A stretch of DNA of 64,000 bases from Candidatus Poribacteria bacterium (GTDB lineage Bacteria; Poribacteria; WGA-4E; WGA-3G). The notes under the pieces were generated by a model. The model was given only the letters and a program-made list of their open reading frames with translations, was not told the DNA's origin and made no database searches. The stretch's first letter is position 1. Each line of letters begins with the position of its first letter. The stretch is taken from positions 3,840,001 through 3,904,000 of the forward strand of contig CAXXLX010000001.1 in NCBI GenBank assembly GCA_963665235.2, in the 5' to 3' direction. This document shows positions 70 through 53,893 of this stretch, piece by piece. A program made the position numbers and the translations under genes.

Positions 70-249
70 TACCATTTTTATTAATTATTCTATCATTACC
101 GGTTGTTAGAAATCAAACGGAGAACGGAAGACCCAAACTAAAAGTTTATGCTACAAGAAAGCACACAAACTGGAAGTTTATGCTACAAAAAACAACACAA
201 ACTGGAAGTTTATGCTACAAGAAAGAGACATTTTCAATTAGAAATGGTA
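70..249 (+). mobile_element. MITE-like element family A, copy 1 (3 REP-like units)
   Basis: TIR TACCATTT..AAATGGTA with TTA on both sides (67-69, 250-252). Conserved body shared with 19947, 37283 and 39520. Internal CACAAACTGGAAGTTTATGCTAC units. Confidence 0.8.
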
Positions 250-287
250 TTATATCCTCACCGAACCGCAAGGAAAAAATCAATTTC

Positions 288-316
288 TTGACAAGTAACG
301 GTAAATATGGTATCAT
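288..316 (+). promoter_or_regulatory. sigma70-type promoter for the HD-selD-pyrE-ymdB cluster
   Basis: TTGACA(288-293)-17 bp-TATCAT(311-316), with TG upstream of the -10. Confidence 0.7.
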
Positions 317-366
317 TTTCTAATGTCTTAAGTCATTAAAAAAAGTAGAAGAGACGAGTTGAAGCC

Positions 367-981
367 ATGACACAGGTATTATTTAACGGGAAAAGCCGGA
401 TTGAATCGGCACTTGAAGTTGCCGCGGAGGCACATCACGGACAATTTCGGAAGGGCACCGACACGCCCTATATTACGCATCCGTATGCGGTTGGGTTGCT
501 GCTAATGGAGGCGGGATGCAAGGAAACGGTGATTATTGCCGGGCTCCTGCACGATACAGTGGAAGACACCGACCTGACATTGGAATTTATTCGGGAACAC
601 TTCGGTGAACAGGTGGCAGCGATTGTCGATGGCTGCTCTGAAAATAAGGCATTAAAATGGCGGGCACGGAAAACCGAGCGTATTGAAGCACTAGCAACAG
701 CAAGCCCGGAGGTATGCCTTGTAACCTGTGCGGATAAACTTCATAACCTACGGACAGTGATTTCAGAGCATCAGGTCATCGGCGATGCCGTGTGGGAACG
801 TTTTCACGGCGGTATTGAAGCACAGGCGTGGTATTATGAAGCGATCGTAGAAAGTTTGCATAAACAGATAGAATGTGATAAAATAGGTAAAGATAACAAC
901 GTCGTTCACGGACAATTTAATCCAATTTTCCAGGCACTACAACGTGCTGTGGCATATCTATTTGAGGATATAACATCCTGA
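367..981 (+). CDS. HD-domain hydrolase, RelA/SpoT (Mesh1/small alarmone hydrolase-like)
   Basis: Motifs H.GQFRK, PYITHP, LLHDTVEDT and ADKLHN typical of (p)ppGpp hydrolase HD domains. Confidence 0.85.
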   Translation: MTQVLFNGKSRIESALEVAAEAHHGQFRKGTDTPYITHPYAVGLLLMEAGCKETVIIAGLLHDTVEDTDLTLEFIREHFGEQVAAIVDGCSENKALKWRARKTERIEALATASPEVCLVTCADKLHNLRTVISEHQVIGDAVWERFHGGIEAQAWYYEAIVESLHKQIECDKIGKDNNVVHGQFNPIFQALQRAVAYLFEDITS

Positions 982-996
982 AAGAAAACAGACATT

Positions 997-2043
997 ATGA
1001 CACAAAAGAAAATTCGACTCACTGCAACAGTAAAATGTGCAGGGTGAGCGTCAAAATTAGCTCCGGGGGAGCTCTCACAAGTTTTAAGCAACATTCCGCC
1101 ATCGACGGATGCGAATCTACTTGTCGGCACTGAAACATCTGACGATGCAGGAATTTACCGGATTTCGGATGACCTTGCCCTCGTCAACACGGTGGACTAC
1201 TTTACGCCCATTGTGGATGACCCGTTCACATTTGGTGCAATTGCTGCGACGAACGCATTGAGCGATGTCTACAGCATGGGTGGCGTTCCGAAAACAGCAC
1301 TGAACATCGCCTGTTGGCCAAAAGAGGCACTTGACTTATGGATACTCGGCGATATCGTTAAAGGGGGTGTCGAAAAGGTCATTGAATCAGGGGCAGCTCT
1401 TGTTGGGGGGCATACAGTGGAGTCACCGGAGCTGATGTACGGTCTTGCGGTGACAGGAGTCGTGCATCCGGAAAAATTTGTAAAAAATTACGGCGCGCGG
1501 CCGGGGGACGTGCTCATTTTAACCAAAAACCTCGGTATCGGTATCCTAACGACAGGCTTGAAGTTCAACAAAATCGGTGAGTCGATATTACCGATGGTGG
1601 TAGAATCCATGACGCGTCTCAATGCGTCCGCATCGGAAGTGATGCTGAAATACGACGCGAATGCTTGCACCGATGTAACAGGATACGGTTTGCTTGGGCA
1701 CGGATTAGAGATGGCGGAAGGCAATGACGTTGGATTGAAAATTAATAGCGGTGCTGTGCCTTACTTTGCGGATGCCCCGGCACTTGTTAGGAAAAAAACC
1801 TATACACAAGCCTATCTTGCCAATACGTCATTTCTTGCAGAGAAGGTGACGTTCCGCTCCGGGGTTTCGGAGGAGATGCAACATATTTTGATGGAGGCGG
1901 AAACGTCGGGCGGTCTGTTATTTGCCTTGCCAGCGGAGAACGCTGACGCAGCTGTGGCAGAACTCCACGCCCGTGATTGCCCAGAAGCTGCCGTTATCGG
2001 TGAAGTTGTAACCGCAGATGCTGCGCATATTGAGGTGTACTAA
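997..2043 (+). CDS. selD: Selenide, water dikinase (selenophosphate synthetase), selenocysteine-containing
   Basis: ATG at 997 is in frame with the 1192 ORF. It reads MTQKKIRLTATVKCAG-UGA(1045-47)-ASKL, then DDAG, DYFTP, GGHT, DVTGYGLLGH and ETSGGLL. Confidence 0.93.
1059..1073 (+). promoter_or_regulatory. Putative bacterial SECIS hairpin
   Basis: AGCTC-CGGGG-GAGCT stem with G-rich loop, starting 11 nt after the in-frame UGA. Confidence 0.6.
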
Positions 2044-2105
2044 ATGTTTCGTAACCTTCTTTTTAATGCCTAACATATACATGTTTTCTTAAGGGCGGAG
2101 GTGTC

Positions 2106-2642
2106 ATGATTCAAAAAATGGAATTAGCGAAACAGATTTGTGAAACGTCCTATCTCACGGGGGAATTCAGGCTCCGCTCTGGAAAGATGAGTACTTTTTA
2201 TTGGGATAAATACCGGTTTGAGAGCAATCCTGTCCTATTATCTGCTATAGCGAAGGAGATGGCGAAGTTGTTACCAGCGGAATTTGACGGTCTCGCCGGG
2301 CTGGAGCTAGGCGGGGTGCCGTTAGCCACTGCTGTCTCGTTGCACACTGGGTATCCATGTTTCTATGTCCGAAAGACAGCGAAAGATTACGGTACCTGTA
2401 ACCTGATAGAGGGCGGCGTTGAAAAGGGGAGTACTGTTGTTGTTATAGAGGATGTAATTACCACTGCAGGGCAGGTCTGTACGTCCATTGAACAGATACG
2501 TGCAGCGGGCTTAATTGTTGAGCACGTCATTGCAGTAATCGAGCGGGAGGCGGGTGGCGAGACAAAAATTAAGGAAGTTGGGTGTTCACTAAGTTCAGTT
2601 TTCACACTAGCAGAGTTAGAAAAAGCAGCGTCTCGGTTATAG
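2106..2642 (+). CDS. pyrE: Orotate phosphoribosyltransferase
   Basis: GEFRLRSGK.S..Y.D, VRK..KDYG, PRPP motif VVVIEDVITTAG. Confidence 0.9.
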   Translation: MIQKMELAKQICETSYLTGEFRLRSGKMSTFYWDKYRFESNPVLLSAIAKEMAKLLPAEFDGLAGLELGGVPLATAVSLHTGYPCFYVRKTAKDYGTCNLIEGGVEKGSTVVVIEDVITTAGQVCTSIEQIRAAGLIVEHVIAVIEREAGGETKIKEVGCSLSSVFTLAELEKAASRL

Positions 2643-2661
2643 AGCCGGCGGAAAGGGGAAA

Positions 2662-3438
2662 ATGAAGATTTTATTTATCGGAGACATTGTCGGCAATCCA
2701 GGGAAGAACGCGACAGTCGAGTTTCTAGAAAATTATGACAAATCCGCTGATTTTATCGTTGTTAACGGCGAAAATATGGCAGATGGAAAAGGGTTAAAGT
2801 TTGCAATCGTAGACCTGTTGTTAGCATCCGGTGTTTCCGCGATTACAACGGGGAATCACGTTTGGGATAAGAAGGAAATTTTAGACTTTATTGAGACAAC
2901 ACCTCAGTTGATTCGACCCGCGAACTATCCCGGGAAGGTGCCGGGGCGCGGTTTTACCGTGGTATCATCAAAGGATAGCGAAACGAAACTTGGGGTTGTC
3001 AACCTCGCTGGACAAGTCTTCATGGGTATGTACGAGAATCCGTTTCATGCGTTGGACGCAATTTTACCGGAGGTGAAAGCGGAAACGCCTTATATCCTAC
3101 TGGATTTCCACGCGGAGGCGACATCGGAAAAAATAGCGATGGGCTGGCATGCCGATGGCAGGGTGAGCGCGGTTATCGGAACGCACACACATGTCCAGAC
3201 AGCAGATGAACGCGTGCTGCCCCAGGGCACCGCTTACATTACGGATGTCGGGATGACAGGCCCCTACGATTCAGTTATCGGCGGCAGAATAGAGCATGTC
3301 CTGAAACGATTTTTGACGATGATGCCTTCCCGTTTCGGCGTTGCACAAGATAATGTCAAGCTCTGTGCAGTTGAGATTGAACTAGACGCTGAAACAGGTT
3401 TAGCAGTCAGCATCGAACGACTTCAATATCAGTTTTAA
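2662..3438 (+). CDS. ymdB: YmdB-like metallophosphoesterase (TIGR00282 family)
   Basis: GDIVG, NGEN, TTGNHVWD, RPANYP, DFHAEATSEK, GTHTHVQTAD, TDVGMTG. Confidence 0.92.
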   Translation: MKILFIGDIVGNPGKNATVEFLENYDKSADFIVVNGENMADGKGLKFAIVDLLLASGVSAITTGNHVWDKKEILDFIETTPQLIRPANYPGKVPGRGFTVVSSKDSETKLGVVNLAGQVFMGMYENPFHALDAILPEVKAETPYILLDFHAEATSEKIAMGWHADGRVSAVIGTHTHVQTADERVLPQGTAYITDVGMTGPYDSVIGGRIEHVLKRFLTMMPSRFGVAQDNVKLCAVEIELDAETGLAVSIERLQYQF

Positions 3439-3440
3439 TT

Positions 3441-3588
3441 GTGGAAGGGTGGAAGGGTGGAAGCGTGGAAGGGTGGAAGCGTGGAAGGGTGGAAGCGTGG
3501 AAGCGTGGAAGAATGGAAATGTGGAAGGGTGGAAGAATGGAAACGTGGAAGGGTGGAAACGTGGAAGGGTGGAAGCGTGGAAGGGTGG
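3441..3588 (+). repeat. Octamer short tandem repeat (GTGGAAGG-type, about 18 units)
   Basis: Directly visible 8-bp periodicity starting 2 bp after the ymdB stop. Confidence 0.95.
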
Positions 3589-3705
3589 ATTTCGCGTGTG
3601 TATTGTCTGAATCGCGGATTAGCGCAGAGGACACGGAGGACGCGGAGTGTCCGGTGCGGAACAATCTCTTTGGCGATTAGCGCATTGACGATTGGCAATT
3701 GGAAA
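3575..3705 (+). repeat. Dispersed composite STR element (8-mer + 9-mer + 7-mer), inverted homologue at 37563-37702
   Basis: GGATTTCGC..GAATCGCGGAT..ACACGGAG.ACGCGGAGTGTCCG.TGCG.AACAATCTCTTTGGC matches the reverse complement of 37563-37702. Confidence 0.8.
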
Positions 3706-3786
3706 CCAGATGTTGTGATTCTAAAAAGAAATCTGAAGCACTGCAGTTTATTTCTCTTGCTAACGGTTTCCATAAGGTTTCCATAA

Positions 3787-3866
3787 TTCTATAAACATAT
3801 CGCCCCGATGGGGCTAGGTTGTGGGCTGGTTGCGTTTGCTATAAACATTCCGCCCCGATGAGGCTG
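3787..3866 (+). repeat. Two units of the CTATAAA..CGCCCCGATGGGGCT palindromic repeat
   Basis: Same unit as the array at 36520-36960. Confidence 0.8.
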
Positions 3867-3947: not shown

Positions 3948-4562
3948 TAAGCCCGAACAACGTGAAGGGCTGGATATATGGCTCATTGGCGATTAGCAAT
4001 TGGCGATTGGCAATTAGCAAGAGGTTTTGAAGATAAACAGGTTTCTGATGTGCTTCAGAGCCCGATTCCTCAAAGAAAGTGGACGGGCTGGATATGGAGA
4101 CGAAAAACCTGTCTAATTTGTGTCCAACACACCCGTAAGCCCGAACAACGTGAAGGGCTGGATATATGGCTCATTGGCGATTAGCAATTGGCGATTGGCA
4201 ATTAGCAAGAGGTTTTGAAGATAAACAGGTTTCTGATGTGCTTCAGAGCCCGATTCCTCAAAGAAAGTAGACGGGCTGGATATGGAGACGAAAAACCTGT
4301 CTAATTTGTGTCCAACACACCCGTAAGCCCGAACAACGTGAAGGGCTGGATATATGGCTCATTGGCGATTAGCAATTGGCGATTGGCAATTAGCAAGAGG
4401 TTTTGAAGATAAACAGGTTTCTGATGTGCTTCAGAGCCCGATTCAAAGAAAGTAGACGGGCTCAAAGAAAGTAGACGGGCTGGATATGGAGACGAAAAAC
4501 CTGTCTAATTTGTGTCCAACACACCCGTAAGCCCGAACAACGTGAAGGGCTGGATATATGGC
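3948..4562 (+). repeat. Tandem repeat with 188-bp unit, about 3.2 copies
   Basis: GCCCGAACAACGTGAAGGGCTGG recurs at 3951, 4139, 4327 and 4531. Each unit has two AGCCC..GGGCT hairpins and a heptamer tract. Confidence 0.92.
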
Positions 4563-4642
4563 GAGGCGGGTGGTTTATGAGACCTGCCTTATCAAACCGC
4601 AAGGAAATCTTAAAAATATCAAACCGCAAGGAAATATCAAAG

Positions 4643-5973: not shown

Positions 5974-6210
5974 TTGACCTTTGAAGAGAAGTTAGAGCGA
6001 TTAAAAGAACTTGTTGAAAAGTTAGAGTCGGGAGATGCATTAGAATTAGATGCGTCGCTGGCCCTCTTTGAGGAGAGCATCGGCTTGGTGCGCTCATGCA
6101 GAACATACCTCGAAGCGGCTGAGGTTCGAGTGCAAAACGTGTCGGAACAGGTAGATAGTGCTGAAGTTTCGGGGCCCGTGCCTTCTGATAACGGTAACAA
6201 AAGCGAATAA
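5974..6210 (+). CDS. xseB: Exodeoxyribonuclease VII small subunit
   Basis: TFEEKLERL..LV.KLESG...L..SL.LFEE...L...C..YL..AE; TTG start; downstream of xseA. Confidence 0.9.
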   Translation: MTFEEKLERLKELVEKLESGDALELDASLALFEESIGLVRSCRTYLEAAEVRVQNVSEQVDSAEVSGPVPSDNGNKSE

Positions 6211-6211
6211 T

Positions 6212-6359
6212 AACCTAAGTTGCCACCTATAACTTTTTAGACTTGGGAACGCCGCTTTTAGTCAAAAAATGCTGTTAATTGGACCGTGAACTTCCTAGTT
6301 CGCGCCCTTATGGAAGACCCAAACTAGGAAGTTTGTGCTACTATGTGTCAACTTGCGTT
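6212..6359. mobile_element. MITE-like element family B, copy 1 (divergent)
   Basis: TIR AACCTAAGTTG..CAACTTGCGTT; ATAAT duplicated (6207-11, 6360-64); contains a CAAACTAGGAAGTTTGTGCTAC REP-like unit. Confidence 0.72.
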
Positions 6360-6435
6360 ATAATATCCATTGAGAGAACTCCTTTTGCTCAATTATTTAT
6401 CGAACTCACGTCAATACCCATTGGAGGTATCCTTC

Positions 6436-19876: not shown

Positions 19877-19946
19877 AAAGAAACAAAGAGGAGGATAATG
19901 GACGCAGTTCATGAAATCCTCCCAAAGAGCCCTCTTCTCCTTCTTA

Positions 19947-20383
19947 TACCATTTTTATTAATTATTCTATCATTACCGGTTGTTAGAAATGAAACGGAGA
20001 ACGGAAGACACAAACTGGAAGTTTATGCTACCATAAAGCGCACAAACTGGAAGTTTATGCTACAATAAAGCGCACAAACTGGAAGTTTATGCTACGATAA
20101 AGCACACAAACTGGAAGTTTATGCTACGATAAAGCACACAAACTGGAAGTTTATGCTACGATAAAGCACACAAACTGGAAGTTTATGCTACGATAAAGCA
20201 CACAAACTGGAAGTTTATGCTACGATAAAGCACACAAACTGGAAGTTTATGCTACGATAAAGCACACAAACTGGAAGTTTATGCTACGATAAAGCACACA
20301 AACTGGAAGTTTATGCTACGATAAAGCACACAAACTGGAAGTTTATGCTACAATAAAGAGACATTTTTCAATTAGAAATGGTA
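19947..20383 (+). mobile_element. MITE-like element family A, copy 2 (11 x 32-bp REP-like units)
   Basis: TACCAT..ATGGTA TIR with TTA flanks; unit CACAAACTGGAAGTTTATGCTACGATAAAGCA starting at 20009 through 20329. Confidence 0.85.
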
Positions 20384-20433
20384 TTATATTTCTTCTCTTC
20401 TCTTATATTTCTTGCCAATTGCTGCCAATGAGC

Positions 20434-28382: not shown

Positions 28383-29879
28383 GTGCCCAAAATGCTGGAT
28401 AATTTGCAAACTACGTTCAATTTCTACGGAAACGGCACCTTAGATGCCCAATTATCTCCTAAAGGTTACAAAGGATTTGCCGGATTTCACAAGTATTGGG
28501 GAAAAAAACCTACCGAGGTGTGGCGATTTCTGATAGGGAATTTGACATCACCTCAGGATATTGTTTTAGACCCATTCCTCGGTGCTGGACTTATAGCGAA
28601 AACGTGTATCAGTCACAATTGTCGCCTTATCGGTTTCGATGTCAATCCAATTAGTATTGCACTAACGAAACTTTATCTAAATCCGCCAGACTACATAGAC
28701 TTAAGAAATGCTATCTATGAAATTGAAAGGCGCGTCAAGCCGCTTATTAATGCCATGTATCTCGTATCCGATGGAAATATAGCGACGCATCTCCTCTGGG
28801 ACAATGACCAGATAACGCAGGTCTGGACAAAACGGAATGGGAAGAGAATTGAACTGAACCTCAATAAGCACGAACTCTCGGCACTTCAAAATGTGGCAAC
28901 ATATCATCCACAAAGACTACGGGAGCTCCGGTTGTTCGACAATTCGAGAATTAATTCACAAAAAACGCTTACTCTTACAGAACTTTTCTCTCCGCGTGCG
29001 TTACGGGCAATTGACTTAATCAAGGCCGAAATAGAACGGTTTTCTGGTGATTTAAAGAGAGCGTTGAATCTGATATTGTCGGCCTCAGTAGGGCAGATGT
29101 CTAACATGGTTTTTGCTGTCTCAAGAAGAGGAAAAACCGAGGGCATTGAAACAGGTAAAATTGAGGTCGGGAGCTGGACAATTGGGTATTGGTGCCCAGC
29201 ACAACATTTTGAAATAAATGCATGGAATTGTTATGCAATCAAAGCCAATAAATTGTTAAAAGCAGTCGGGGAGGCAGGTGACGCGAAACCTGTCACGATT
29301 TCCCCCTCTCTAAATAGTCTCCTAAATCAGCACGAAACCGTTTATGTCCAACAGGGGGACGCAGCGCAACTACTAACAGACGTTCCAACTGAATCAATCA
29401 AAGTCATCATAACCGATCCGCCGCATGGAGACAGGATTCCGTATTTGGAACTCAGTGAGATGTGGAACAGCGTCCTGTGTTTTGATTCTAACTACGAAGA
29501 TGAATTGGTTGTTTCAAATGCGAAAGGGCGCGGCAAAGATATCCGAGCTTATAACGAGAAATTAACCTCAATCTTCCATCAATGCGCCCGAGTTCTAGAA
29601 AAAGACGGGTTCTTGATAATCATGTTTAACGCAAGGGCTGCAGCCTATTGGCAAAGTCTTCGCCAATTGGAAGCAGCTACGGGACTTGCATATATCGGGT
29701 GTTATCCGAGCGCATATTCTGCCGGCTCAATCCTTCAAGATAATAGGAAAGGCGGATTAAAAACGGATTTCGTTCTGTTGTACGGAAAACAGATAAGCGA
29801 GAAAAATCTGGAGAAAACCGTGGCAACCTTTAGCGATGTAAAAGGTTGGACAACCCGCTATCCCAAGGAAAGTGAGTGA
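28383..29879 (+). CDS. Amino (N6-A/N4-C) DNA methyltransferase
   Basis: HKYWGKKP, SAM motif DPFLGAG, catalytic TDPPH. Confidence 0.85.
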   Translation: MPKMLDNLQTTFNFYGNGTLDAQLSPKGYKGFAGFHKYWGKKPTEVWRFLIGNLTSPQDIVLDPFLGAGLIAKTCISHNCRLIGFDVNPISIALTKLYLNPPDYIDLRNAIYEIERRVKPLINAMYLVSDGNIATHLLWDNDQITQVWTKRNGKRIELNLNKHELSALQNVATYHPQRLRELRLFDNSRINSQKTLTLTELFSPRALRAIDLIKAEIERFSGDLKRALNLILSASVGQMSNMVFAVSRRGKTEGIETGKIEVGSWTIGYWCPAQHFEINAWNCYAIKANKLLKAVGEAGDAKPVTISPSLNSLLNQHETVYVQQGDAAQLLTDVPTESIKVIITDPPHGDRIPYLELSEMWNSVLCFDSNYEDELVVSNAKGRGKDIRAYNEKLTSIFHQCARVLEKDGFLIIMFNARAAAYWQSLRQLEAATGLAYIGCYPSAYSAGSILQDNRKGGLKTDFVLLYGKQISEKNLEKTVATFSDVKGWTTRYPKESE

Positions 29880-30973
29880 AAACGTTGGATTTTAATACGG
29901 CTGTGAACCTATTCAAAAACGATAAAATTCGTGAACTCTCCACAACAGCTGAGGGAATGCGGTTTTTAAAGCTACGTTCACTCTCGCGAAAGGTGCATCT
30001 CGATTACCTTATCAATGAATTTGAAATAGACATCGGAACCCGCAGCTCAAACAATGAGAGGCTGAGGCTACTTTACGAGTCAGATATTTGCTCTGTAAGT
30101 ATAAACCACGCCATACAGATATTGTTTGAAAAAGAACGAGAAACCCGACAGAAAAACGAACAACAATTGATAAATGAGTTGTACAAAGTTCAGTCTTTTG
30201 ATTGGGGGGGTTTACACCGAAACAGTTTAGAAACAACAATTGTAAATAGGTATGTGAAGAAAATAACCTCTTATGAATTCCTGCATGATGAAATAGAAGG
30301 TACACTTCACAAGCGTTTAAGGTCTTACGTCCTCGCTTCTTGGTACAATCATTGGACCTCTATCATTATTGAGGATATTTTTAAGGAACATGCGAAGGTG
30401 ATTCCAGCGGTGGGACAGATAAAGAAAATTGACTTTTTCCTTAACAATAAACCGTTCGATTTAAAAGTCACATACCTACCTGAAGGCTATATTAAAGATT
30501 GTCGCAAGGCTAACGGATTACGCCCTGAGTTGACCTTAATGAAAATTTCAGCTCGAAAACTAAATATTGCTTTCGACGCATCAGCTCCGGAATCAGTGTT
30601 AATTCCTGATTTATGGCGTAAACTTGACGACAATCCTAATGATAGTGCGCGCGAATTGATAGATGAACTACAAACATATAGGGAGGAGGTATTAAACACC
30701 GCTATCACCGAGCCGAAATCACTCGGACGATGGTTTTATGAAAATCAAGGCCTGCGGCGTTTCGATGCTTCAAATCGGTTGTTTCTTGTGCTGGTAGATA
30801 AAACCAACTTTTTTGATTCGTGGAAATTAAAAAGAGCTCGACCGTTGATTGCCGCACACGTAACCAATTACCTGGAAGAAGCTAATACAGATGTAGGTTT
30901 TCAACTCGACTTCTATTGGGATGGAGAAACCTACTCAACTGAAGCAGATGTGATATTTGTTACCAAGCAATAA
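29876..30973 (+). CDS. Putative type II restriction endonuclease
   Basis: 4-bp overlap with the MTase gene; E..F ... IDFF ... DLK resembles a PD-(D/E)xK site; AT-rich. Confidence 0.6.
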   Translation: MKTLDFNTAVNLFKNDKIRELSTTAEGMRFLKLRSLSRKVHLDYLINEFEIDIGTRSSNNERLRLLYESDICSVSINHAIQILFEKERETRQKNEQQLINELYKVQSFDWGGLHRNSLETTIVNRYVKKITSYEFLHDEIEGTLHKRLRSYVLASWYNHWTSIIIEDIFKEHAKVIPAVGQIKKIDFFLNNKPFDLKVTYLPEGYIKDCRKANGLRPELTLMKISARKLNIAFDASAPESVLIPDLWRKLDDNPNDSARELIDELQTYREEVLNTAITEPKSLGRWFYENQGLRRFDASNRLFLVLVDKTNFFDSWKLKRARPLIAAHVTNYLEEANTDVGFQLDFYWDGETYSTEADVIFVTKQ

Positions 30974-32005: not shown

Positions 32006-32015
32006 GCAATATGGC

Positions 32016-32065
32016 TAGGACTTACGCAGCAGGTGTTTATAACTGCAATATTTCGTGTAAGTGCT
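32016..32065. repeat. Short inverted-repeat element TAGGACTTACGCA..GTGTAAGTGCT
   Basis: Imperfect terminal inverted repeats in the mdh-LamG gap. Confidence 0.5.
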
Positions 32066-32104
32066 CCATAACACGAAAAACCCACAGAAAAGGAGAGAAA
32101 ACTC

Positions 32105-32896
32105 ATGTTTGATAAGATAATGTTGATTTTAACTTTCACGACCTGTGCCCTGTTTCTCGCTATCCCTGCGGTGAATGCCGAATTCCCCGAAGATGGCGTG
32201 GTCGGCTACTGGCCGTTCGACGATGGCACGATTCAAAACAAAAACGTCAAAGACGTTTTAGGCAAAAATGATGGTGAACTTAATGGAAACCCCAAATCCG
32301 TTGCTGGTAAAGTTGGAAAAGCACTTGAATTCAACGGTGACAATTTTGTCCATATCCCTGGCGACGATTCATTAAACTTCGTTGGTGCCGAAGCGATGAC
32401 TGTTGCGGCTTGGGTAAATGCTGACAACGATCTGCCAGTGAAAGGTGTGCTTGCTAACTGTTGCGGGACCATCGTTGCTCAACGCGATATGAATAGCTGG
32501 GCATTGCGATTTGATGGCAGAAATGGTGGAGCGGAAATGGAATTTATTGCCACCCCAGGCTGGCAGGGAGATGGCGGTTTTGGAGCCGCTGCCTTTCCCG
32601 CAGGTCAATGGAACCACCTCGTCGGAATTATTGATAAAAACAAGCGGTTTCTCTATGTGAATGGCAAATTAGAAAAAGAGGCGGATTACAACGGGCCGAT
32701 GGCTTCAAACGGTTCTGAAACGGAAATTGGTAACGCAAGCGATGGCGGCTTCATCGGGATTATCGACGAGGTCGTGATTTACAACAGAGCCCTCTCCGCC
32801 AATGAGGTGAAACAACTATTTGCTGCTGAAGGGCTGCCAGTTCAACCACAAGGCAAACTTGCCACCCGATGGGGACAAATCAAATCCTCATTTTAA
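32105..32896 (+). CDS. Secreted LamG-like jellyroll protein with C-terminal 'VQPQGKLATRWGQIK' tail
   Basis: Signal peptide, GYWPFD, GKVGKALEF.G, W.HL, GIIDEV.IYN.AL. Confidence 0.88.
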   Translation: MFDKIMLILTFTTCALFLAIPAVNAEFPEDGVVGYWPFDDGTIQNKNVKDVLGKNDGELNGNPKSVAGKVGKALEFNGDNFVHIPGDDSLNFVGAEAMTVAAWVNADNDLPVKGVLANCCGTIVAQRDMNSWALRFDGRNGGAEMEFIATPGWQGDGGFGAAAFPAGQWNHLVGIIDKNKRFLYVNGKLEKEADYNGPMASNGSETEIGNASDGGFIGIIDEVVIYNRALSANEVKQLFAAEGLPVQPQGKLATRWGQIKSSF

Positions 32897-32991
32897 ATTG
32901 GCGCTCCTTCTCAATAGGCGGATTGACGAATCTACCTATATTGCATGTAGTTCAAAGTATAGCGGGACCGTTTTCAAAAAGAGGAAAAATT

Positions 32992-33789
32992 ATGTTTTCA
33001 AAGGGACTTACGATATTCATACTCAGTATTGGCGCGCTGTGCGTTCTTATTTCTAACGCCGATGCCCAACTGCCTATAAATGGCGTTGTCGGTTACTGGT
33101 CTTTCGATGATGGCACGATTAATGGCAAAAACGTCGAAGACCTACTAGGCGACAACGACGGTGAACTAGAGGGAAATCCGAAAATTGTCCCTGGAAAGGT
33201 CGGAAAAGCACTTGAATTCAACGGCGATAATGCAGTGCGTATTGCGGGCACAGCCTCTTTAAACTTCAAAGGTGCAGAAGAAATGAGCGTCGCCGCTTGG
33301 GTCAAGCCCGCGAGTGATAAGCCCGTTAAAGGCGTAATTGCCAATACGTGTTGCGGCACAATTGTTGGACAACGTGATAGTGAGGGGTGGGTGTTAAGAT
33401 TTGATGGTAGAAATGTCGGTAAAGAGATGGTGCTGATAGTGCAACCGGGCTGGCAGGGACACAATACACTTGGCGTTCCCCCGTTTAACAAAGGGACATG
33501 GCATCACTTGGTAGGCGTTGTTGATAAAAACAGGTTGCTGCTCTATGTTGATGGGAAATTGGAAAGTGAGGTTGGATACAACGGACCGATGTCTACAAAA
33601 GGCACGGCAACCGAAATCGGCAACGCCAAAGCGGATGGCGGTTTTATCGGGATTATTGACGAAGTCCTGATTTACAACAAAGCTGTCACCGCTAACGAGG
33701 TTAAACAACTTTTTACGGCACAAGGACTGCTAGTTCACCCACAAGGCAAACTTGCCACCCGATGGGGACAAATCAAAGCGGCACGGTAG
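32992..33789 (+). CDS. Secreted LamG-like jellyroll protein, tandem paralog
   Basis: Colinear with 32105-32896; same tail VHPQGKLATRWGQIK. Confidence 0.88.
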   Translation: MFSKGLTIFILSIGALCVLISNADAQLPINGVVGYWSFDDGTINGKNVEDLLGDNDGELEGNPKIVPGKVGKALEFNGDNAVRIAGTASLNFKGAEEMSVAAWVKPASDKPVKGVIANTCCGTIVGQRDSEGWVLRFDGRNVGKEMVLIVQPGWQGHNTLGVPPFNKGTWHHLVGVVDKNRLLLYVDGKLESEVGYNGPMSTKGTATEIGNAKADGGFIGIIDEVLIYNKAVTANEVKQLFTAQGLLVHPQGKLATRWGQIKAAR

Positions 33790-36405: not shown

Positions 36406-36431
36406 GTAGGGAAACCATTCATGGTTTCCCT
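36406..36431 (+). repeat. GTAG-type REP-like palindrome
   Basis: GTA-GGGAAACCAT-TC-ATGGTTTCCC. Confidence 0.65.
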
Positions 36432-36519
36432 CGATTTACCGAACTATTTATGGTGTAGAGAGCCAGAATGAGGCACATCAAGCGGTCATGAGGCACGTTA
36501 GCGAATGTGTTGTTGTGTT

Positions 36520-37225
36520 TTCTATAAATATACCGCCCCGATGGGGCTAGATTGTCTGGCACTTGTGCTTCTATAAACATACCGCCCCGATGGGGCTAGA
36601 TTGTCTGGCACTTGTGCTTCTATAAACATACCGCCCCGATGGGGCTAGATTGTGTTGTGTTGTTGTGTTTTCTATAAATATACCGCCCCGATGGGGCTAG
36701 ATTGTGTTGTGTTGTTGTGTTTTCTATAAATATACCGCCCCGATGGGGCTAGATTGTGTTGTGTTGTTGTGTTTTCTATAAATATACCGCCCCGATGGGG
36801 CTAGATTGTGTTGTGTTGTGTTTTCTATAAATATACCGCCCCGATGGGGCTAGATTGTCCGGCACTTGTGCTTCTATAAACATACCGCCCCGATGGGGCT
36901 AGATTGTGTTGTGTTGTTGTGTTTTCTATAAATATACCGCCCCGATGGGGCTAGATTGTCTGGTTGTTGTGTTCACTATTAAAATGTCGCCCCGATACGC
37001 CTAGTCCCGTAGGGACGATATATTTATAGAAGCAGATGTTTCCCCAACCCCTAGTTGTTGACGATATATTTATAAATATGTTTCCCCGCCCCGATGGGGC
37101 TAGATTGTCTGGCGTTCACATTAAACCTGTCGCCCCGATACGCCTAGTCCCGTAGGGACGATATATTTATAGAAGCAGATGTTTCCACAACCCCTAGGCC
37201 CGTAGGGACGATATATTTATAGAGA
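36520..37225 (+). repeat. Array of CCCCGATGGGG palindromic units (9 direct copies at 49/52-bp period, then degenerate and inverted partner units)
   Basis: TCTATAAA(T/C)ATACCGCCCCGATGGGGCTAGATTGT at 36521, 36570, 36619, 36671, 36723, 36775, 36824, 36873 and 36925; inverted CCCGTAGGGACGATATATTTATAGA units follow. Confidence 0.92.
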
Positions 37226-37282
37226 AAATGTTTCGGCACATTTATTTTCAAACTCACGTTTAAGTACAAAAATTTTACACAC

Positions 37283-37521
37283 CCATTTCTAATTGAAAAT
37301 GTCTCTTTGTAGTAGCATAAACTTCCAGTTTGTGCATTTTTGTAGTAGCATAAATATTTTGTGCGTTTTATCGTAGCATAAACTTATAGTTTGTGCGTTT
37401 TATCGTAGCATAAACTTATAGTTTGTGCGTTTTATCGTAGCATAAACTTATAGTTTGGGTCTTCCGTTCTCCGTTTCATTTCTAACAACCGGTAATGATA
37501 GAATAATTAATAAAAATGGTA
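37283..37521 (-). mobile_element. MITE-like element family A, copy 3 (inverted, 5 units, one end clipped)
   Basis: Reverse complement of the family A body; ATGGTA|TAA at the right end; GTAGCATAAACTT..AGTTTG units. Confidence 0.8.
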
Positions 37522-37562
37522 TAATATGCGCTTTGACGCGCGTCAGAGTTCTCTTTCTCTTT

Positions 37563-39392: not shown

Positions 39393-39519
39393 ATTGCCGA
39401 CCTCCAATACTCAGGTGAAGTGAACTTTAATATCACCTAGAGTATGCCACAAATTGCATAAAAAATCAACATAAAACAATTTCTGCAGCAGCTTATACGA
39501 GGATTACCGCGTTAACTTA

Positions 39520-40159
39520 TACCATTTTTATTAATTATACCTAAGTTGCCACATAGTAGCATAATCTTCCCAGATTGTGCATATTTGTGTGCAAATTGGA
39601 AGTGAACGGGACAAATATTAGCTCATTATCAGCATATTTTCATTAAAGACGGTGTTTCCAGGTCTAAAAACTTATAAGTAGCAACTTGGGTTAATTATTC
39701 TATCATTACCGGTTGTTAGAAATGAAACGGAGAACGGAAGACCCAAACTAAAAGTTTATGCTACAAGAAAGAGGCACAAACTGGAAGTTTATGCTACAAG
39801 AAAGAGGCACAAACTGGAAGTTTATGCTACAAGAAAGAGGCACAAACTGGAAGTTTATGCTACAAGAAAGAGGCACAAACTGGAAGTTTATGCTACAAGA
39901 AAGAGGCACAAACTGGAAGTTTATGCTACAAGAAAGAGGCACAAACTGGAAGTTTATGCTACAAGAAAGAGGCACAAACTGGAAGTTTATGCTACAAGAA
40001 AGAGGCACAAACTAAAAGTTTATGCTACAAGAAAGAGGCACAAACTGGAAGTTTATGCTACAAGAAAGAGGCACAAACTGGAAGTTTATGCTACAAGAAA
40101 GAGGCACAAACTGGAAGTTTATGCTACAAGAAAGAGACATTTTTCAATTAGAAATGGTA
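39520..40159 (+). mobile_element. MITE-like element family A, copy 4 (12 x 33-bp units) with nested family B element
   Basis: TTA|TACCAT..ATGGTA|TTA; unit CACAAACTGGAAGTTTATGCTACAAGAAAGAGG starting at 39742 through 40105. Confidence 0.85.
39538..39692. mobile_element. MITE-like element family B, copy 2 (inside A4)
   Basis: ACCTAAGTTGC..GCAACTTGGGT; AATTA duplicated; removing it restores the family A left end. Confidence 0.85.
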
Positions 40160-40293
40160 TTACTAAGAAACCCGCCTGCAACAACGGCGCAGGCGAGCGG
40201 AGGCCCACGATTCAAATTATTTGCTTGTATTGTAAGAGGATTTTTGATATACTTTGACATTAATATCTATTTATGGTGTGAGGTAAAAGAAAA

Positions 40294-41363: not shown

Positions 41364-41396
41364 GTAGGGCGGAGCAGTGCTCCGCCCGCTTTTTTT
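41364..41396 (+). terminator. GTAG REP-like hairpin followed by a T-tract (intrinsic terminator)
   Basis: GTA-GGGCGGAGCA-G-TGCTCCGCCC-GCTTTTTTT between convergent genes. Confidence 0.65.
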
Positions 41397-48765: not shown

Positions 48766-48879
48766 GAAGTTGTTCTCCTTGTAGAGGAATTCGCTGAAAA
48801 AATAGGCGAACTGTCGGTAAATACAGGTCACGGTTTTCGGAGAAAGGATTGCATCGGCCCCGTTCTCCGCGTCCATTTT

Positions 48880-49033
48880 AACCCAAATTGCTACTTATAA
48901 GTTTTTAGACCTGGAAACACCGTCTTTAATGAAGATATGCTGATAATTAGCTAATATTTGTCCCGTTCACTTCCAATTTGCACACAAATATGCACAATCT
49001 GGAAGATTATGCTACTATGTGGCAACTTGCGTT
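48880..49033. mobile_element. MITE-like element family B, copy 3 (inverted relative to B2)
   Basis: AACCCAAATTGC..GCAACTTGCGTT; ATTTT duplicated; near-exact reverse complement of 39538-39692. Confidence 0.87.
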
Positions 49034-49040
49034 ATTTTAT

Positions 49041-50122: not shown

Positions 50123-50143
50123 GAGAAAACTCCTTTTGAGGAA

Positions 50144-50172
50144 TGCGGCTGCTCTGATGAGAGACAGCCGCG
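50144..50172. terminator. Hairpin GCGGCTG..CAGCCGC between co-oriented genes
   Basis: Inverted repeat without a clear T-tract. Confidence 0.35.
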
Positions 50173-50182
50173 ATTGGTTTCC

Positions 50183-51043
50183 CTATTCGTCCATTTCTAT
50201 GTCATCAAATGTTAGGTCCTGATACCCTTCTGCTTTGAATTTATCTTGTGGCTTCCATCCAACGTAGTGCGACACTGCCACCGTGGTCTCGGCTTCCACT
50301 CGGAACACATCTTCTTCTTCCCAGTCCCAATTTTTCAACCCATCATAAGACTTAGATGGGCTCTCAAGATCGACTAAGGGCTGGGTATCACCATCAGACA
50401 CTTTGCCCCTATTCACAACTAAAGGCAGCGTGTAAATGTCCTGAAGATGCTCGGCCTTCTCCCCGGGTTGTGTAATCCGGGTAATCCAAAGTTGGTATTT
50501 AAAAGCATAGAAGAGGTCCTGTCCTGTTATATTTGCAATCTCTCCGTATAGGTTCCAGTAGGCAGTAGCTCCGCGCCATCCTATTGAGGTGACTTCCGCA
50601 TGAACCCACGCCCCGGTGCTGCCCCCAAAGCCATTATCGGAATCTACAACGTCCGCCGTTGGGCGATAGGCTGTCACATCGTAGGACGCAGTGTCCGTTA
50701 GCGGCGCGTCCATTCTACAAGCGACCGCCTTGATTGTATGGCGGGTACCATAAACGGTGAGATCAAAGTGGGAGGGAATAGGAGTGAAAGACGCTTTTGT
50801 TTTGGCATGACCCCCATAGCTATAGCCTGCTAAAACATCATTAACATACCAGATAACGCTATAGTAGGGCTCATCCGTTTCCAATGTCGCGGTGTGTAGC
50901 ACAAGGCTACCGTCAACACGAATGTCATAATTCTTATCCTCGGGTTCCATTTTCAGAATCTCAAAACCCTCCGTGTAGCCCACAAAACCGAGGGTAAACA
51001 GTGCTGCGATTGTTGCGATGCTGAGCAATATCCTAAATTTCAT
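50183..51043 (-). CDS. Secreted hypothetical protein
   Basis: AGGAG RBS, signal peptide, Ig-like N-terminal part (PYYSV.WYVND ... HTIKA). Confidence 0.75.
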   Translation of the reverse strand: MKFRILLSIATIAALFTLGFVGYTEGFEILKMEPEDKNYDIRVDGSLVLHTATLETDEPYYSVIWYVNDVLAGYSYGGHAKTKASFTPIPSHFDLTVYGTRHTIKAVACRMDAPLTDTASYDVTAYRPTADVVDSDNGFGGSTGAWVHAEVTSIGWRGATAYWNLYGEIANITGQDLFYAFKYQLWITRITQPGEKAEHLQDIYTLPLVVNRGKVSDGDTQPLVDLESPSKSYDGLKNWDWEEEDVFRVEAETTVAVSHYVGWKPQDKFKAEGYQDLTFDDIEMDE

Positions 51044-51205
51044 GTTTCATCTCCTGTTGACACCAAGATAGGTGCCGGTAGTTTCTAAAATAAACAGTGA
51101 TCCCAAACTTCAAAGAGGGGTACCCAACAACAAACGCAGCGGGTTAATATATGGGGACCGCTCATGTCAAGCTGAGTTTGTTGTTTAATCGTAACATCTT
51201 TATTC

Positions 51206-51234
51206 ATTCTAAAATAAAGAGATAAAAAAGTCAA
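51206..51234 (-). promoter_or_regulatory. sigma70-type promoter
   Basis: Minus strand TTGACT-17 bp-TAGAAT. Confidence 0.6.
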
Positions 51235-51348
51235 GAAAAAATACTTGGCTCTTGGTAATTAGCTATTGGCTATTGGTTATTGGCAATTAGCAAGAAATAT
51301 AAGAAGAATCGCTAGCACAGCTCGCTCCTAACAAAAGAGGGTCTCCTT

Positions 51349-53532
51349 TTAATTCTGTTCAGTACTGTCGATTTTCAAATCCTCAAATGAGTTTCCATCC
51401 GTGTCGGTGATGCGGAGATAGAATCCCCAGCCGCCTATCTCCTCACATACCTTGATGAGAATGCTGTTTTTGCCTGCATTTAGGGTTACAGGAATAGTGT
51501 AATTGTCAATTTCTGCCGTATTCGTTTTCGTGTGTGAAAACACCTCTATCCCGTTCAACCAAATTACTCCTTGGTCATCGGAGTCAAATCGGAGTTGAAC
51601 TTCGCGTTCATCTGGGGAGGTTACAATTGCGAATGCATAAGCGATGCGCCAATCATCCTCTTCCCCGAGGCTGATGTAACCGTTTAGGATTTCATCTGCA
51701 TGTTTCCGCCAACGTATTTTCCCATATTTCCCATCGTATTCTGTTGTAGGGTCAATCTGTGGTAAATTTTCTGGGATGTACACTGTATCATATCCGATGC
51801 CATCCGTATTATCAAACGGTCCGAGAATTATCCAATCATCTTCTGCAACGAACCCGGTTTTTTGAATAAGTTCTTTCGCTTTTTCGGGCGCGTCATTTTC
51901 TCTGTAGAATTGCGCCAAAGCGAAAATAGCATTGAAACGTGCCGATGGATTGTGAGGCATATCGGCGATTAATCTCTCTAGCATGTCAACGTAACCCTCT
52001 TTATTCTTTACACGTCTTCCGATAGCGACGAGCCGGGCGAACCACTGACGTTCAAGATAAGGGGGTAATATTTCATCTAAGTTCGCGGCGATGACTTGAA
52101 AAGCCGCCTCATATATTCCATTGATGAGGAGTGCCTCGGTAAGGGTGAGTTCGTAAGCGAAACTTAATCTAAGCTCTGAGGCGTGCAGAGCGAATTCCAA
52201 AGCAACTTTAGGAAAAATGTTTTTGCTAAGTAGTTTTTCAGCTAGGGTGTGATATTCATCCACCCGCGCTCGCCTATTGATTTCTCTTTTTCGGATTTCA
52301 ATCCATCGCGTATAAGCAATTTCAGCTTTTTCTGTCTCACCAGCAGCTTTGTAAGCATCCCCTAAGAGCTCGTGTAGAATGGCACTTTTTTCCATTCTTG
52401 GTCTCAGCTCTTCAAGCAGCGTAACGAACGCCTCACCTGCGTCTCTGTCAGTGTAAAGTTTGTGGAGGGCACGAATTGCGTCGTTATGTTCGGCTTGTGT
52501 GAGGTGTGCGTCCAAGGCACGCAGATAGAGCTTTTCTGCTTCAGCAAAACGTTCGGTTTCGATATATATTTCGGCAAGATAACGGTAAGCCTCATAATAG
52601 TTAGTTTCACGCGTGAGGAATTCTTGATATGCGCTCGTTGCCGTGGCGAGTTGTTCCGTATCGGTTATGGCAACAACGGGCCGGATGTAATCAACCAGTT
52701 TTGCAGTGCCTATCAGTCTTCCATGGTTCCGATTCGGTGATGCATCGGAGACAATTCTGTCCGTTTGTTCGTCAAATTTCCAATATGCGACTAAACCGGG
52801 TTCATCGCCGTTAAGGTGTGCACGCATATCGGCGCGGATGTCAGCCTCAGTACGTGCGATATTCCAGACCCGTACCTCGTCGATGTTACCTACAAAAGCG
52901 GCGTGAAACGCCATTTCCTCTTCATGTGAACAGCCAATTCGGAGTGGCAGGATAGTTTTAAGGATATGTTCCTCCCCGTCAAAATCATCCATTGCGATCT
53001 CAATACCGTTTATATATAGTTTCATGACATCTTTTTCCGCATCAATGGTGCCTGCCACGTGGGACCATTCGTTTATCTCAAGTGCTCCTGGGCGCGACAT
53101 AAGGTATTGTGCGTCTTGCCCATTTGGAGATGTATCAAATTGAACAGCCCCATCATCCCTTAGCCAGAATGTGAATTGGCGATGCCTGATACCTGGGAGT
53201 CGCTTGTTACCTTTGAAAAGGATATTGGTATATCTTTTTGGAAAATCTGTCGGTTTGAGCCATGCGGATACCGTTACCTGTTTCGTAATGTTGTTTAATG
53301 TCTCACTGTCAAAGATTTCTACATAACTATCGTTGCCATCCAGTGCAAGGGCAGTATTCACGACAACCACATCGGATTCGGAAGGTTGACCGGTTTTTTC
53401 ACCATTTGCCCCCTCCTGCGCGAAAATGGGGGTGAAAACCGAAGAACTCAAGACGAACAGAGATAGGATGCAAATGAGCACTTTTTTGGTTCCAGAAACC
53501 TTCGGAGAGTGCCTACTACTCCGTTTTAGCAT
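51349..53532 (-). CDS. Secreted LamG + TPR + C-terminal beta-sandwich protein (727 aa)
   Basis: Signal peptide; LamG (AL.LDG, DEVRVWN.AR, LVAYWKFD); TPRs; W..LGPF / SDDQG..WLNG / G.N.IL.KV / GWGF..R domain. Confidence 0.85.
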   Translation of the reverse strand: MLKRSSRHSPKVSGTKKVLICILSLFVLSSSVFTPIFAQEGANGEKTGQPSESDVVVVNTALALDGNDSYVEIFDSETLNNITKQVTVSAWLKPTDFPKRYTNILFKGNKRLPGIRHRQFTFWLRDDGAVQFDTSPNGQDAQYLMSRPGALEINEWSHVAGTIDAEKDVMKLYINGIEIAMDDFDGEEHILKTILPLRIGCSHEEEMAFHAAFVGNIDEVRVWNIARTEADIRADMRAHLNGDEPGLVAYWKFDEQTDRIVSDASPNRNHGRLIGTAKLVDYIRPVVAITDTEQLATATSAYQEFLTRETNYYEAYRYLAEIYIETERFAEAEKLYLRALDAHLTQAEHNDAIRALHKLYTDRDAGEAFVTLLEELRPRMEKSAILHELLGDAYKAAGETEKAEIAYTRWIEIRKREINRRARVDEYHTLAEKLLSKNIFPKVALEFALHASELRLSFAYELTLTEALLINGIYEAAFQVIAANLDEILPPYLERQWFARLVAIGRRVKNKEGYVDMLERLIADMPHNPSARFNAIFALAQFYRENDAPEKAKELIQKTGFVAEDDWIILGPFDNTDGIGYDTVYIPENLPQIDPTTEYDGKYGKIRWRKHADEILNGYISLGEEDDWRIAYAFAIVTSPDEREVQLRFDSDDQGVIWLNGIEVFSHTKTNTAEIDNYTIPVTLNAGKNSILIKVCEEIGGWGFYLRITDTDGNSFEDLKIDSTEQN

Positions 53533-53554
53533 AGAAATAACCTCGTATTGTTTA

Positions 53555-53579
53555 ACGGCACACAGCGTGTCCCTACTAC
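53555..53579 (-). repeat. GTAG-type REP-like palindrome
   Basis: Minus strand GTAGTAGGGACACGCTGTGTGCCGT; half-copy at 53501-53520 inside the CDS. Confidence 0.6.
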
Positions 53580-53582
53580 TTT

Positions 53583-53893
53583 AACCTAAGTTGCCACATA
53601 GTAGCATAATCTTCCAGATTGTGCATATTTGTGTGCAAATTGGAAGTGAACGGGACAAATTAGCTAATTATCACGCGAGTTTGAAAAAAGTTTTGACCTA
53701 GAGCGTTCTCTGGTAGTTTTAGCAAAAAACGGCACAAACTAGGAAGTTTATGCTACAATTATACCGCTTTTTTCGCGGTGAAAAAGGTTTAGAGCAAACG
53801 GATATTTATTATCAAGCTCACGTTAATTATCAGCATATTTTCATTATAGAAGGTGTTTCCAGGTCTAAAAACTTATAAGTAGCAACTTGGGTT
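53583..53893. mobile_element. MITE-like element family B, copy 4 with nested family C element
   Basis: AACCTAAGTTGC..GCAACTTGGGTT; ACTTT duplicated (53578-82, 53894-98). Confidence 0.87.
53673..53823. mobile_element. MITE-like element family C (inside B4)
   Basis: TIR ACGCGAGTTTGA..TCAAGCTCACGT; TAATTATC duplicated; carries GCACAAACTAGGAAGTTTATGCTAC. Confidence 0.8.

Follow-up and report, generated by a model that had tools for sequence, protein, structure and literature searches.

The stretch of DNA considered here (hereafter the window) comprises 64 kb of a Candidatus Poribacteria genome (positions 3,840,001 to 3,904,000 of contig CAXXLX010000001.1, assembly GCA_963665235.2). Its gene content as recognised by Pfam, including BamA, a TamB-like protein, MoxR/BatA and proteins with Laminin_G_3 and GFO/IDH/MocA domains, is that of a diderm bacterium. 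Dispersed along it are nine small elements belonging to three families with different ends, designated A (four copies), B (four) and C (one), and every one of these contains some form of the same short hairpin, here called REP1, which has a 9-bp stem tagged with TTT-GTAG (consensus TTT-GTAG-CAYAAACT-loop-AGTTTGTG-C). [quoted passage not shown] The reading we favour, and which we hold with moderate confidence, is that REP1 is the REP of this lineage, and that it forms the core of several MITE frameworks, which would be moved in trans by enzymes making staggered cuts.

That REP1 is a genuine repeat can be seen by scanning the window with its 24-mer core, which gives 29 matches at up to 3 mismatches, with 0 expected from 100 dinucleotide-preserving shuffles. 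A stricter finder, in which GTAG had to precede a perfect stem of 7 bp or more, returns 40 hairpins, 33 of which are REP1, as compared with 1 to 12 when any of eight other tetranucleotides is used as a control; in all, 36 units of REP1 were counted. No Rfam family matches the window or three of the related loci described below at the gathering score, the nearest approach being chance-level hits (E from 0.17) on one copy of A.

Family A has the ends TACCATTT.. and ..AAATGGTA, flanked in the window by TTA or TAA, and its four copies hold the hairpin not singly but in head-to-tail arrays of a 32-33-bp unit (the hairpin plus 8-9 nt) of 3, 11, 5 and 12 units; the long arrays have 98% internal identity, and in the third copy four of the five units pass the unit criterion, the fifth being internally deleted. 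An alternative reading of such arrays as a CRISPR array was ruled out, as the spacers are only 8-9 nt long and near-identical within an array. Family B has the ends AACCTAAGTTGC.. and ..GCAACTTGGGTT, and in the window only its copies show a degenerate second (inverted) hairpin arm. The positions of all nine elements given in an initial annotation of this DNA were confirmed on reading the sequence, as were the target site duplications (TSDs) that it reported, AT-rich and 5 bp long for B and 8 bp long for C, which are exact direct repeats at all copies in the window. Its assertion that one hairpin is common to all the families stands for all nine elements, subject to the corrections that the hairpin is multiple in A (3-12-unit arrays) and partly degenerate in the B copy at 6212, and the TTA flanks that it assigned to A are found at three copies, the one at about 37281 being reversed, with one end degenerate and TAA at the intact end (Table 1).

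Two of the elements have inserted into others, B into A at 39538 and C into B at 53673, so that uninterrupted copies of A and B can serve as empty sites. In this filled/empty comparison, made among the window copies themselves, the bases duplicated exactly in the filled state (5 bp and 8 bp respectively) are present once only in the A copies at 70 and 19947, and once only in the B copy at 39538; the empty sites with a single copy of the duplication that had been predicted therefore do exist. The absence of a mobilising enzyme from the window was likewise borne out: a Pfam search of its 36 open reading frames (ORFs) of at least 110 aa revealed no transposase, and tblastn found no match there to either the protein described below that resembles a REP-associated tyrosine transposase (RAYT) or IS630-type proteins.

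Table 1 Elements and element remnants of families A, B, C and E in the window, with their REP1 content and flanking duplications.
Family	Position	Strand	REP1 content	Target site duplication	Remarks
A	70..249	(-)	3 units, innermost degenerate	TTA, 67-69 and 250-252	
A	19947..20383	(-)	11 tandem 32-bp units, array 20008-20358, 98% matches	TTA, 19944-19946 and 20384-20386	Sited between convergent genes
A	~37281..37521	(+), reversed	5 units, loops TCC and TAT	TAA at intact end, 37522-37524	Left end degenerate
A	39520..40159	(-)	12 tandem 33-bp units, array 39744-40136	TTA, 39517-39519 and 40160-40162	Split by family B at 39538-39692
B	6212..6359	(-)	Partly degenerate, 6318-6341	ATAAT, 6207-6211 and 6360-6364	
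B	39538..39692	(+)	Variant (AATCT/AGATT stem, 4-nt loop), 39556-39580	AATTA, 39533-39537 and 39693-39697	Nested in A
B	48880..49033	(-)	AATCT/AGATT, 48992-49015	ATTTT, 48875-48879 and 49034-49038	
B	53583..53893	(+)	53601-53624	ACTTT, 53578-53582 and 53894-53898	Split by C
C	53673..53823	(-)	4-nt loop, 53732-53756	TAATTATC (exact 8 bp), 53665-53672 and 53824-53831	Nested in B
C, lone right end	6397..6411	(+)			Beside B copy; search for left partner found none
C, lone right end	37245..37259	(+)			Between GCCCCGATGGGGC array and A copy
E, remnant	~32015..32070	(+)	None		Exact 12-nt E end at 32017, opposite end degenerate

Related genomes were sampled by a scan with the hairpin pattern in which one stem pair and the loop were left free, giving at least 102 stretches (1.37 Mb in total) from about 47 assemblies, of which about 44 are labelled Poribacteria, two “uncultured bacterium” and one Bacteroidota. 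It must be remembered that these loci were picked because they hold the hairpin, so that all counts given below for relatives concern the loci themselves and are not totals per genome. The single locus labelled Bacteroidota (L046, 38.6% G+C) was set aside, since its resemblance to the pattern seems fortuitous.

In these loci REP1 behaves as a REP, bearing out the identification made in the initial annotation: it has the GTAG tag, an asymmetric and covarying stem and a free loop, its sites are intergenic, and its copies are found alone, in inverted doublets or in arrays. Several features show that the structure of the stem is constrained. At the one pair that the scan pattern did not fix there are 107 instances of A/T and 13 of T/A, with just 2 of the 122 unpaired (Fisher p = 2e-15, uncorrected for relatedness of the sequences), the loop shows 16 variants, and the partner hairpins of doublets, which were not selected by the pattern, show a compensatory change from A:T to G:C at another stem pair. 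When folded as DNA the hairpin, with its 9-bp stem (about 38% G+C) and 3-4-nt loop, is more stable on the GTAG strand (-5.5 kcal/mol, z = -3.5) than on the other (-3.9 kcal/mol), because one stem position is a T.G pair there. Upstream of the tag T is preferred at positions -1, -2 and -3 (84%, 70% and 58% respectively), and downstream a C at +1 closes the stem. REP1 also exists free, and it occurs as singles, as inverted doublets of the type known as REPINs (REP doublets forming hairpins), which could form a long hairpin (e.g. in L006, L010, L013, L014, L076 and L078), and as arrays that repeat every 30, 34, 40 or 48 bp.

REP1 is also found, across the sampled loci, within at least five families of element (A to E) that have terminal inverted repeats (TIRs) and TSDs, and that have the features by which MITEs are recognised, being small, non-coding and multi-copy, with a TSD length specific to each family. 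To assess the TSDs, perfect repeats in copies with paired ends were compared with those in mismatched control pairs. For family B a perfect 5-bp TSD is present in 8/15 copies (1.9% in the controls), and for family E, which has a modal length of 116 bp, in 15/28 (0.4% in the controls). For family C a rigid script counted perfect 8-mers in 2/10 copies, but this proved too inflexible about the element boundary, and when the flanks were re-read by eye 8/10 proved to have direct repeats of 7 bp or more, the duplication being 7-8 bp long. Family A has a modal length of 112 bp with one hairpin, most other genomes carrying it with just a single unit, and its 3-bp flanks are identical in 34 of 43 paired-end copies, 21 being TAA/TAA and 12 TTA/TTA, with 2 copies discordant (TAA/TTA); these flanks are direct repeats lying outside the inverted ends. 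Duplications of TTA or TAA are typical of IS5/Harbinger-type elements, and elements of the IS630/Tc1-mariner type duplicate TA. From the duplications, the enzymes moving A, B, C and E would probably be of the DDE type.

Family D, of which the window has no copy and whose ends begin TATAGTAAAAC, is the only one of the families whose ends appear to match those of a DDE-type insertion sequence (IS). The first end motif used for D was too strict, yielding 4 pairs, none with the hairpin, and the family was therefore re-examined starting from the hairpin. The 13 D ends that adjoin REP1 have 70-87% identity over 30 nt to the ends of an IS630-type element of 910 bp (L045 1-914), against a background median of 50%; this IS has one ORF with a helix-turn-helix domain and another encoding DDE_3, and holds no REP1. 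The initial annotation had recommended looking for autonomous IS with matching TIRs; this IS is the only candidate of the kind, and it concerns D. A Pfam search of 21 ORFs lying between distant pairs of A, D or E ends, where larger elements might be expected, gave 20 ordinary or unassigned products, the remaining one being the DDE_3 protein of L045, and among ORFs beside unpaired B, C, D or E ends inspection of the listing, with no profile scan made, revealed no clear transposase.

Of 177 distinct REP1 clusters in these loci, 71 are enclosed by the two ends of one family and another 58 adjoin a single recognisable end, and most copies of A and B carry the hairpin; two outcomes that had been foreseen as damaging to the linkage, namely that most family members would lack the REP, or that REPs would occur inside elements at no more than the intergenic background, were in our judgement not what was found. 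Whether the hairpin is to be seen as cargo or as a working part of the elements is another question. An alignment of 29 A copies from many species shows conservation of about 0.9 in the TIR columns, 0.8-0.9 in the REP stem and 0.4-0.7 in the spacers, but the stem figure is inflated, since 21 of the 29 had been picked by an exact hairpin pattern. The 8 copies not picked in that way are more instructive: 4 carry REP1 with an intact stem and the tags ATAG, GTAC, GTAG and GTGG, and the other 4 have, in the same place, hairpins of three other types, each judged by eye to be GTAG-tagged, one of the types being the REP2 described below. Similarly, of 24 copies of E, 11 have REP1 and 10 a CCCCC..GGGGG hairpin, while one copy has REP2, one has another core and the last is N-masked. 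The frameworks of A and E thus occur also with other palindromic cores, implying that the ends do not need REP1 and that any framework can be freely paired with different cores; this favours the view of the hairpin as cargo that is kept intact once carried, and its being so kept points to some benefit. The linkage of REPs to DDE-type MITEs proposed in the initial annotation therefore survives to the extent that discrete TIR/TSD elements do contain the REP, while its further suggestion that the REP is a functional part of each MITE is weakened both by these other cores and by clusters that have no family end nearby (see below).

A second class of GTAG-tagged hairpin, REP2 (GTAGGTNCGGTTTCCTAACCG..), is widespread among the relatives, with 33 instances in the sampled loci (e.g. 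in L001, L006, L007, L010 and L019), but has no copy in the window. In 9 of the 33 it is enclosed by both ends of an A, B, D or E framework, and it occurs also in at least two further TIR families, the ends of which begin ACCAAATTAACG and GAAGATTAAG.

A motif screen of 3028 ORFs in the sampled loci produced one Y1-type protein (L079 352-1023, minus strand, 223 aa), which has the motifs HVHVV and YILNNPVK. It scores 24.1 bits against Pfam Y1_Tnp (cut-off 23), its sole match in NCBIfam is REP_Tyr_transpos, and its sole match in the PDB is the E. coli enzyme TnpArep (4ER8), which is a weak one (E = 0.009). Directly downstream of the gene are five REP1 units, which pass straight into a family E element of which just the right half is present, and upstream are three more of a GTAC-tagged variant, set in 50-bp units (L079 1130-1290) each of which holds a REP lacking its 5' stem half and an intact GTAC-tagged hairpin; none of these flanking units is among those chosen by the scan pattern. 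A RAYT-like gene flanked by REP1, which had been suggested as something to search for, thus exists in one related genome, and its product is a candidate enzyme for acting on REP1. Within the sampled loci tblastn revealed no second copy. Homologues number 1115 at E <= 1e-5, the 6 named ones all being from Poribacteria, and the residues of the HUH motif and the catalytic tyrosine (H120, H122 and Y195) are invariant in 14 that were aligned. An AlphaFold model based on this 14-sequence alignment was too poor to be used (predicted local distance difference test score, pLDDT, 39.6).

The ends of these homologues provide some indirect information as to what surrounds their genes. Among 120 listed homologues, 45 terminate in xN[F/C], with R, C or G four residues before the final one in 44 of these 45, and such an ending is what would be predicted from translating NGT-AGC-GCA-AAC-T[T/G]T-TAG, that is, a sense REP, bearing either of the two most frequent loops, that lies over the stop codon. 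In 9 of the 120 the N-terminus reads M[H/N]KLKV..T, corresponding to translation of an antisense REP just upstream. Together these peptide ends suggest that the REP-flanked layout may occur elsewhere too.

Taking these results together, the scheme that we propose is as follows. REP1 would be the short GTAG-tagged palindrome of a REP/RAYT system of long standing in the Poribacteria, and copies of this palindrome, either single or as inverted doublets, would have become the core of several unrelated non-autonomous transposons. These MITEs, namely A (with TTA/TAA duplications), B and E (with duplications of 5 bp), C (of 7-8 bp) and D (with IS630-type ends), would be moved in trans by transposases that make staggered cuts, most likely DDE-type enzymes, and each jump of a MITE would also disperse the REP. 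A REP that is kept might benefit its surroundings by providing a stable RNA hairpin at the 3' end of a neighbouring gene, or a site for RAYT or for a host protein, and the long arrays seen in the window could reflect local amplification of one REP-plus-spacer unit inside an element. Both the route by which REP1 entered each framework and its function are matters that we infer from the sequences.

There are a number of points that weigh against this scheme and must be set beside the inflated stem conservation mentioned above. First, and chiefly, the sampling is skewed: it was through the hairpin that the families came to light, so that hairpin-free families of MITE would escape notice and it cannot be claimed that all families carry it. 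The window's own genome is outside the sample (a megablast of the window against the loci gave no matches), and the counts refer to its relatives. In 1.37 Mb no autonomous IS with the ends of A, B, C or E was found. Then, 48 of the 177 clusters lack a family end at distances of up to 220 nt, and of 46 such clusters that were examined 31 show no flanking inverted repeat of any sort and 4 have a good one of another kind, implying that the REP also spreads or persists without TIRs. As to the enzyme, only one RAYT-like gene was seen together with its DNA flanks, the score of its product against REP_Tyr_transpos (66.1 bits) lies under the family cut-off of 80, and both REP1 arrays are on the strand of the gene rather than being inverted as in the classical arrangement. 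Finally, the argument from peptide ends is indirect, as the conserved C-terminus could instead be a feature of the protein.

A more ambitious version of the same idea, which we put forward only tentatively, would be that the coupling is phylum-wide, so that REPs and REPINs of a vertically maintained HUH (RAYT-type) system ride on several DDE-type MITE frameworks throughout the Poribacteria, the cores being swapped at the hairpin, with the REP as the unit under selection and the MITE as its carrier. If the swapping were done at the hairpin by a Y1 enzyme or by recombination, the outcome would be a combinatorial pool of “ends x cores”, a corollary that is possible but as doubtful as the idea on which it depends.

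Of the explanations that differ in kind from our scheme, the one that survives best, unlikely though we think it to be, holds that the hairpin is simply a motif useful to the host, whether as a stabiliser or terminator at RNA 3' ends or as a protein site, that MITEs bearing it are tolerated or retained, and that the connection with a RAYT is incidental, the hairpin being ubiquitous between genes. Such a view accommodates many of the properties of REP1: 136 of 139 clusters are intergenic (in loci that were, of course, chosen for the hairpin), of 68 cases lying between co-directional genes 46 have GTAG on the sense strand (p = 0.005, based on crude ORF calls), the hairpin is more stable on that strand, the stem covaries while the loop is free, and in the window other GTAG hairpins lie just past genes at 36406 and 41364. 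Against this, there is no run of T past the stem (positions +2 to +8 are mixed), so that it is not an intrinsic terminator, no Rfam family matches it, and the bias in sense is a modest one that might just as well stem from a single-strand transposase with a preference for one replication strand; moreover an RNA role alone leaves unexplained both the arrays of 11-12 identical units and the presence of REPs on both sides of the RAYT-like gene.

The variety of cores raises a further possibility, to which we give distinctly less weight, that the REP is a site where elements are broken and rejoined, either by a Y1 enzyme or by homologous recombination, so that their halves are swapped and the families are mosaics under constant reshuffling at the hairpin rather than lineages that took up a REP once each. 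One might then expect to see just what is seen in A, with four types of core, and in E, with at least four, as well as the presence of REP2 inside A, B, D and E, the array in L079 that passes into the right half of an E element without any left half, and a few half elements that stop at the edge of a REP (L001, L089 and L029). The expected chimeras are, however, hard to find: when 13 one-ended copies of A were inspected most proved to have mutated ends or to be nested, about 3 being truly truncated at or near the REP, and 9 cases of mixed families yielded neighbours or nestings and no clear chimera.

Transposition of the IS200/IS605 type, which proceeds via a single strand, is not known to make a duplication. 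The notion that a Y1 (RAYT-like) enzyme moves all of the elements by acting on the hairpin, their TIRs being an outer palindrome and their flanks a target preference, is consistent with the hairpin being common to every family and with the occurrence of RAYT-like genes flanked by long TIRs as described in part of the literature (PMC3733652), but we regard it as very improbable, given that the flanks vary between copies and yet match within a copy (in E and B at 15/28 and 8/15, against 0.4% and 1.9% of controls), that the repeat is single-copy at the empty site for both nested insertions, that the A and E frameworks occur without REP1, and that the D ends match an IS encoding DDE_3.

Besides REP1, the window contains other repeats and hairpins that may be recorded here. 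Other GTAG-tagged 9-bp hairpins are found at 36406-36430 and 41364-41387, some 20 nt past the stops of two GFO/IDH/MocA oxidoreductase genes, and these may be further REP classes or may be terminator-like. A second palindromic repeat, GCCCCGATGGGGC followed by TAG, forms a tandem array at 36506-36996 of about 10 units of 49/52 bp, with isolated copies at 3787-3860 and 37086-37113, and it may represent another type of cargo; the lone family C end at 37245-37259 is about 250 bp downstream of this array. An exact 12-nt family E end at 61458-61469, inside a gene for a 3128-aa protein with tetratricopeptide repeats (TPR), is either due to chance or a trace of an old insertion.

Of the remaining features, that at 3948-4562 is an intergenic stretch ahead of the exonuclease VII gene in which a 188-bp unit is repeated 3.2 times (94% matches), each unit having runs of the heptamers ATTGGCG/ATTAGCA; runs of a heptamer TTGGC(T/G)A are also seen in intergenic regions at 3985, 19835, 51245 and 63284. 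About 18 copies of the octamer GTGGAAGG/GTGGAAGC follow directly after a YmdB-like gene (3441-3589), where spurious ORFs overlap on both strands. The gene with a DNA methylase domain and the overlapping 365-aa ORF without a Pfam match at 28383-30973 are possibly a restriction-modification pair. Tandem paralogous Laminin_G_3 genes are present at 32105-33789 and 51349-54203, with 72-86% DNA identity in blocks, and a 300-bp stretch is common to the TPR/Laminin_G_3 genes for the 727-aa and 3128-aa proteins.

Much of what has been described has precedents. GTAG-tagged REPs, REPINs, RAYTs and clusters of REPs have all been reported, as have RAYT genes flanked by TIRs or by composite repeats derived from REPs (PMC3733652, PMC3337134, PMC3184786, each drawn on in part), and the GTAG REP/RAYT superfamily has been noted in deep-branching phyla (PMC3733652, PMC3337134). 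The present system resembles these in its short palindrome, which is imperfect and has GTAG unpaired on the 5' side, in its intergenic singles, inverted doublets and tandem clusters, and in the flanked gene for a Y1 HUH enzyme. It differs in that the REP lies also inside TIR/TSD elements of at least five frameworks, in being AT-rich where those known are GC-rich, in having direct head-to-tail arrays of up to 12 units where those known alternate in orientation, and in the two particulars of L079 already given, the orientation of its arrays and the score of its enzyme.

Bacterial MITEs derived from DDE-type IS are also familiar, e.g. Correia/NEMIS, RUP and Nezha, together with IS630-derived and IS5-type elements. 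Families A to E share with them a length of 100-300 bp, the lack of coding capacity, TIRs, family-specific TSDs, multiple intergenic copies and nesting, as well as the IS630-type ends in the case of D, but here unrelated families share an internal hairpin belonging to another transposition system, and the same ends are found with alternative cores.

In E. coli the clusters known as bacterial interspersed mosaic elements (BIMEs) reach about a dozen REPs. In Pseudomonas, TIRs built from degenerate GTAG-1 units are joined to unrelated stem-loops (PMC3733652, PMC3184786), so that there too REPs are combined with other conserved motifs; in the portions of those papers used here, however, TIRs of their own with TSDs or nesting are not reported, and in our case the outer parts behave as independent transposon ends. 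A parallel to the arrays is the BrickBuilt MITE of Porphyromonas gingivalis, which, according to the part of the account drawn on (PMC4596501), has a variable tandem array of a 23-nt unit between a leader and a tail with small inverted-repeat ends. In both cases the interior of a MITE is a tandem array of a short unit (here 32-33 nt), but here the unit is a spacer plus a GTAG hairpin, the hairpin is not confined to this MITE but recurs in free form, in MITEs of other families and next to a RAYT-like gene, and most other genomes carry the same MITE (family A) with one unit only. Lastly, REPs are known to interact with DDE/DEDD-type elements in that IS1397, IS621 and others insert into them (PMC3184786, in part); in those cases the IS splits the REP, the halves of which come to flank it, whereas in the present system it is the element that encloses the REP, which is intact, and the targets are AT-rich and not REPs.

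In the literature searched, which did not cover subscription journals, nothing was found that describes several TSD-making MITE families with an intact REP as their common core, nor any paper on REPs or MITEs in Poribacteria. What is new here is the finding of palindromes of the REP/RAYT kind that apparently ride in MITEs having the hallmarks of DDE transposition, for which the mechanism is our proposal. There is also a practical aspect, in that modular repeats of this sort, among them 400-bp arrays built from 32-bp units, will cause short-read assemblies of these uncultured symbionts to break or collapse, and they can mislead programs that search for repeats or for CRISPR.

How REPs and REPINs spread is still described as unsettled (PMC3337134, in the part drawn on). 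If the scheme proposed here is true, it would provide a concrete second route for the dispersal of REPs, make the interplay between HUH and DDE enzymes open to test, and offer a natural system in which selection on a carrier can be separated from selection on its cargo.

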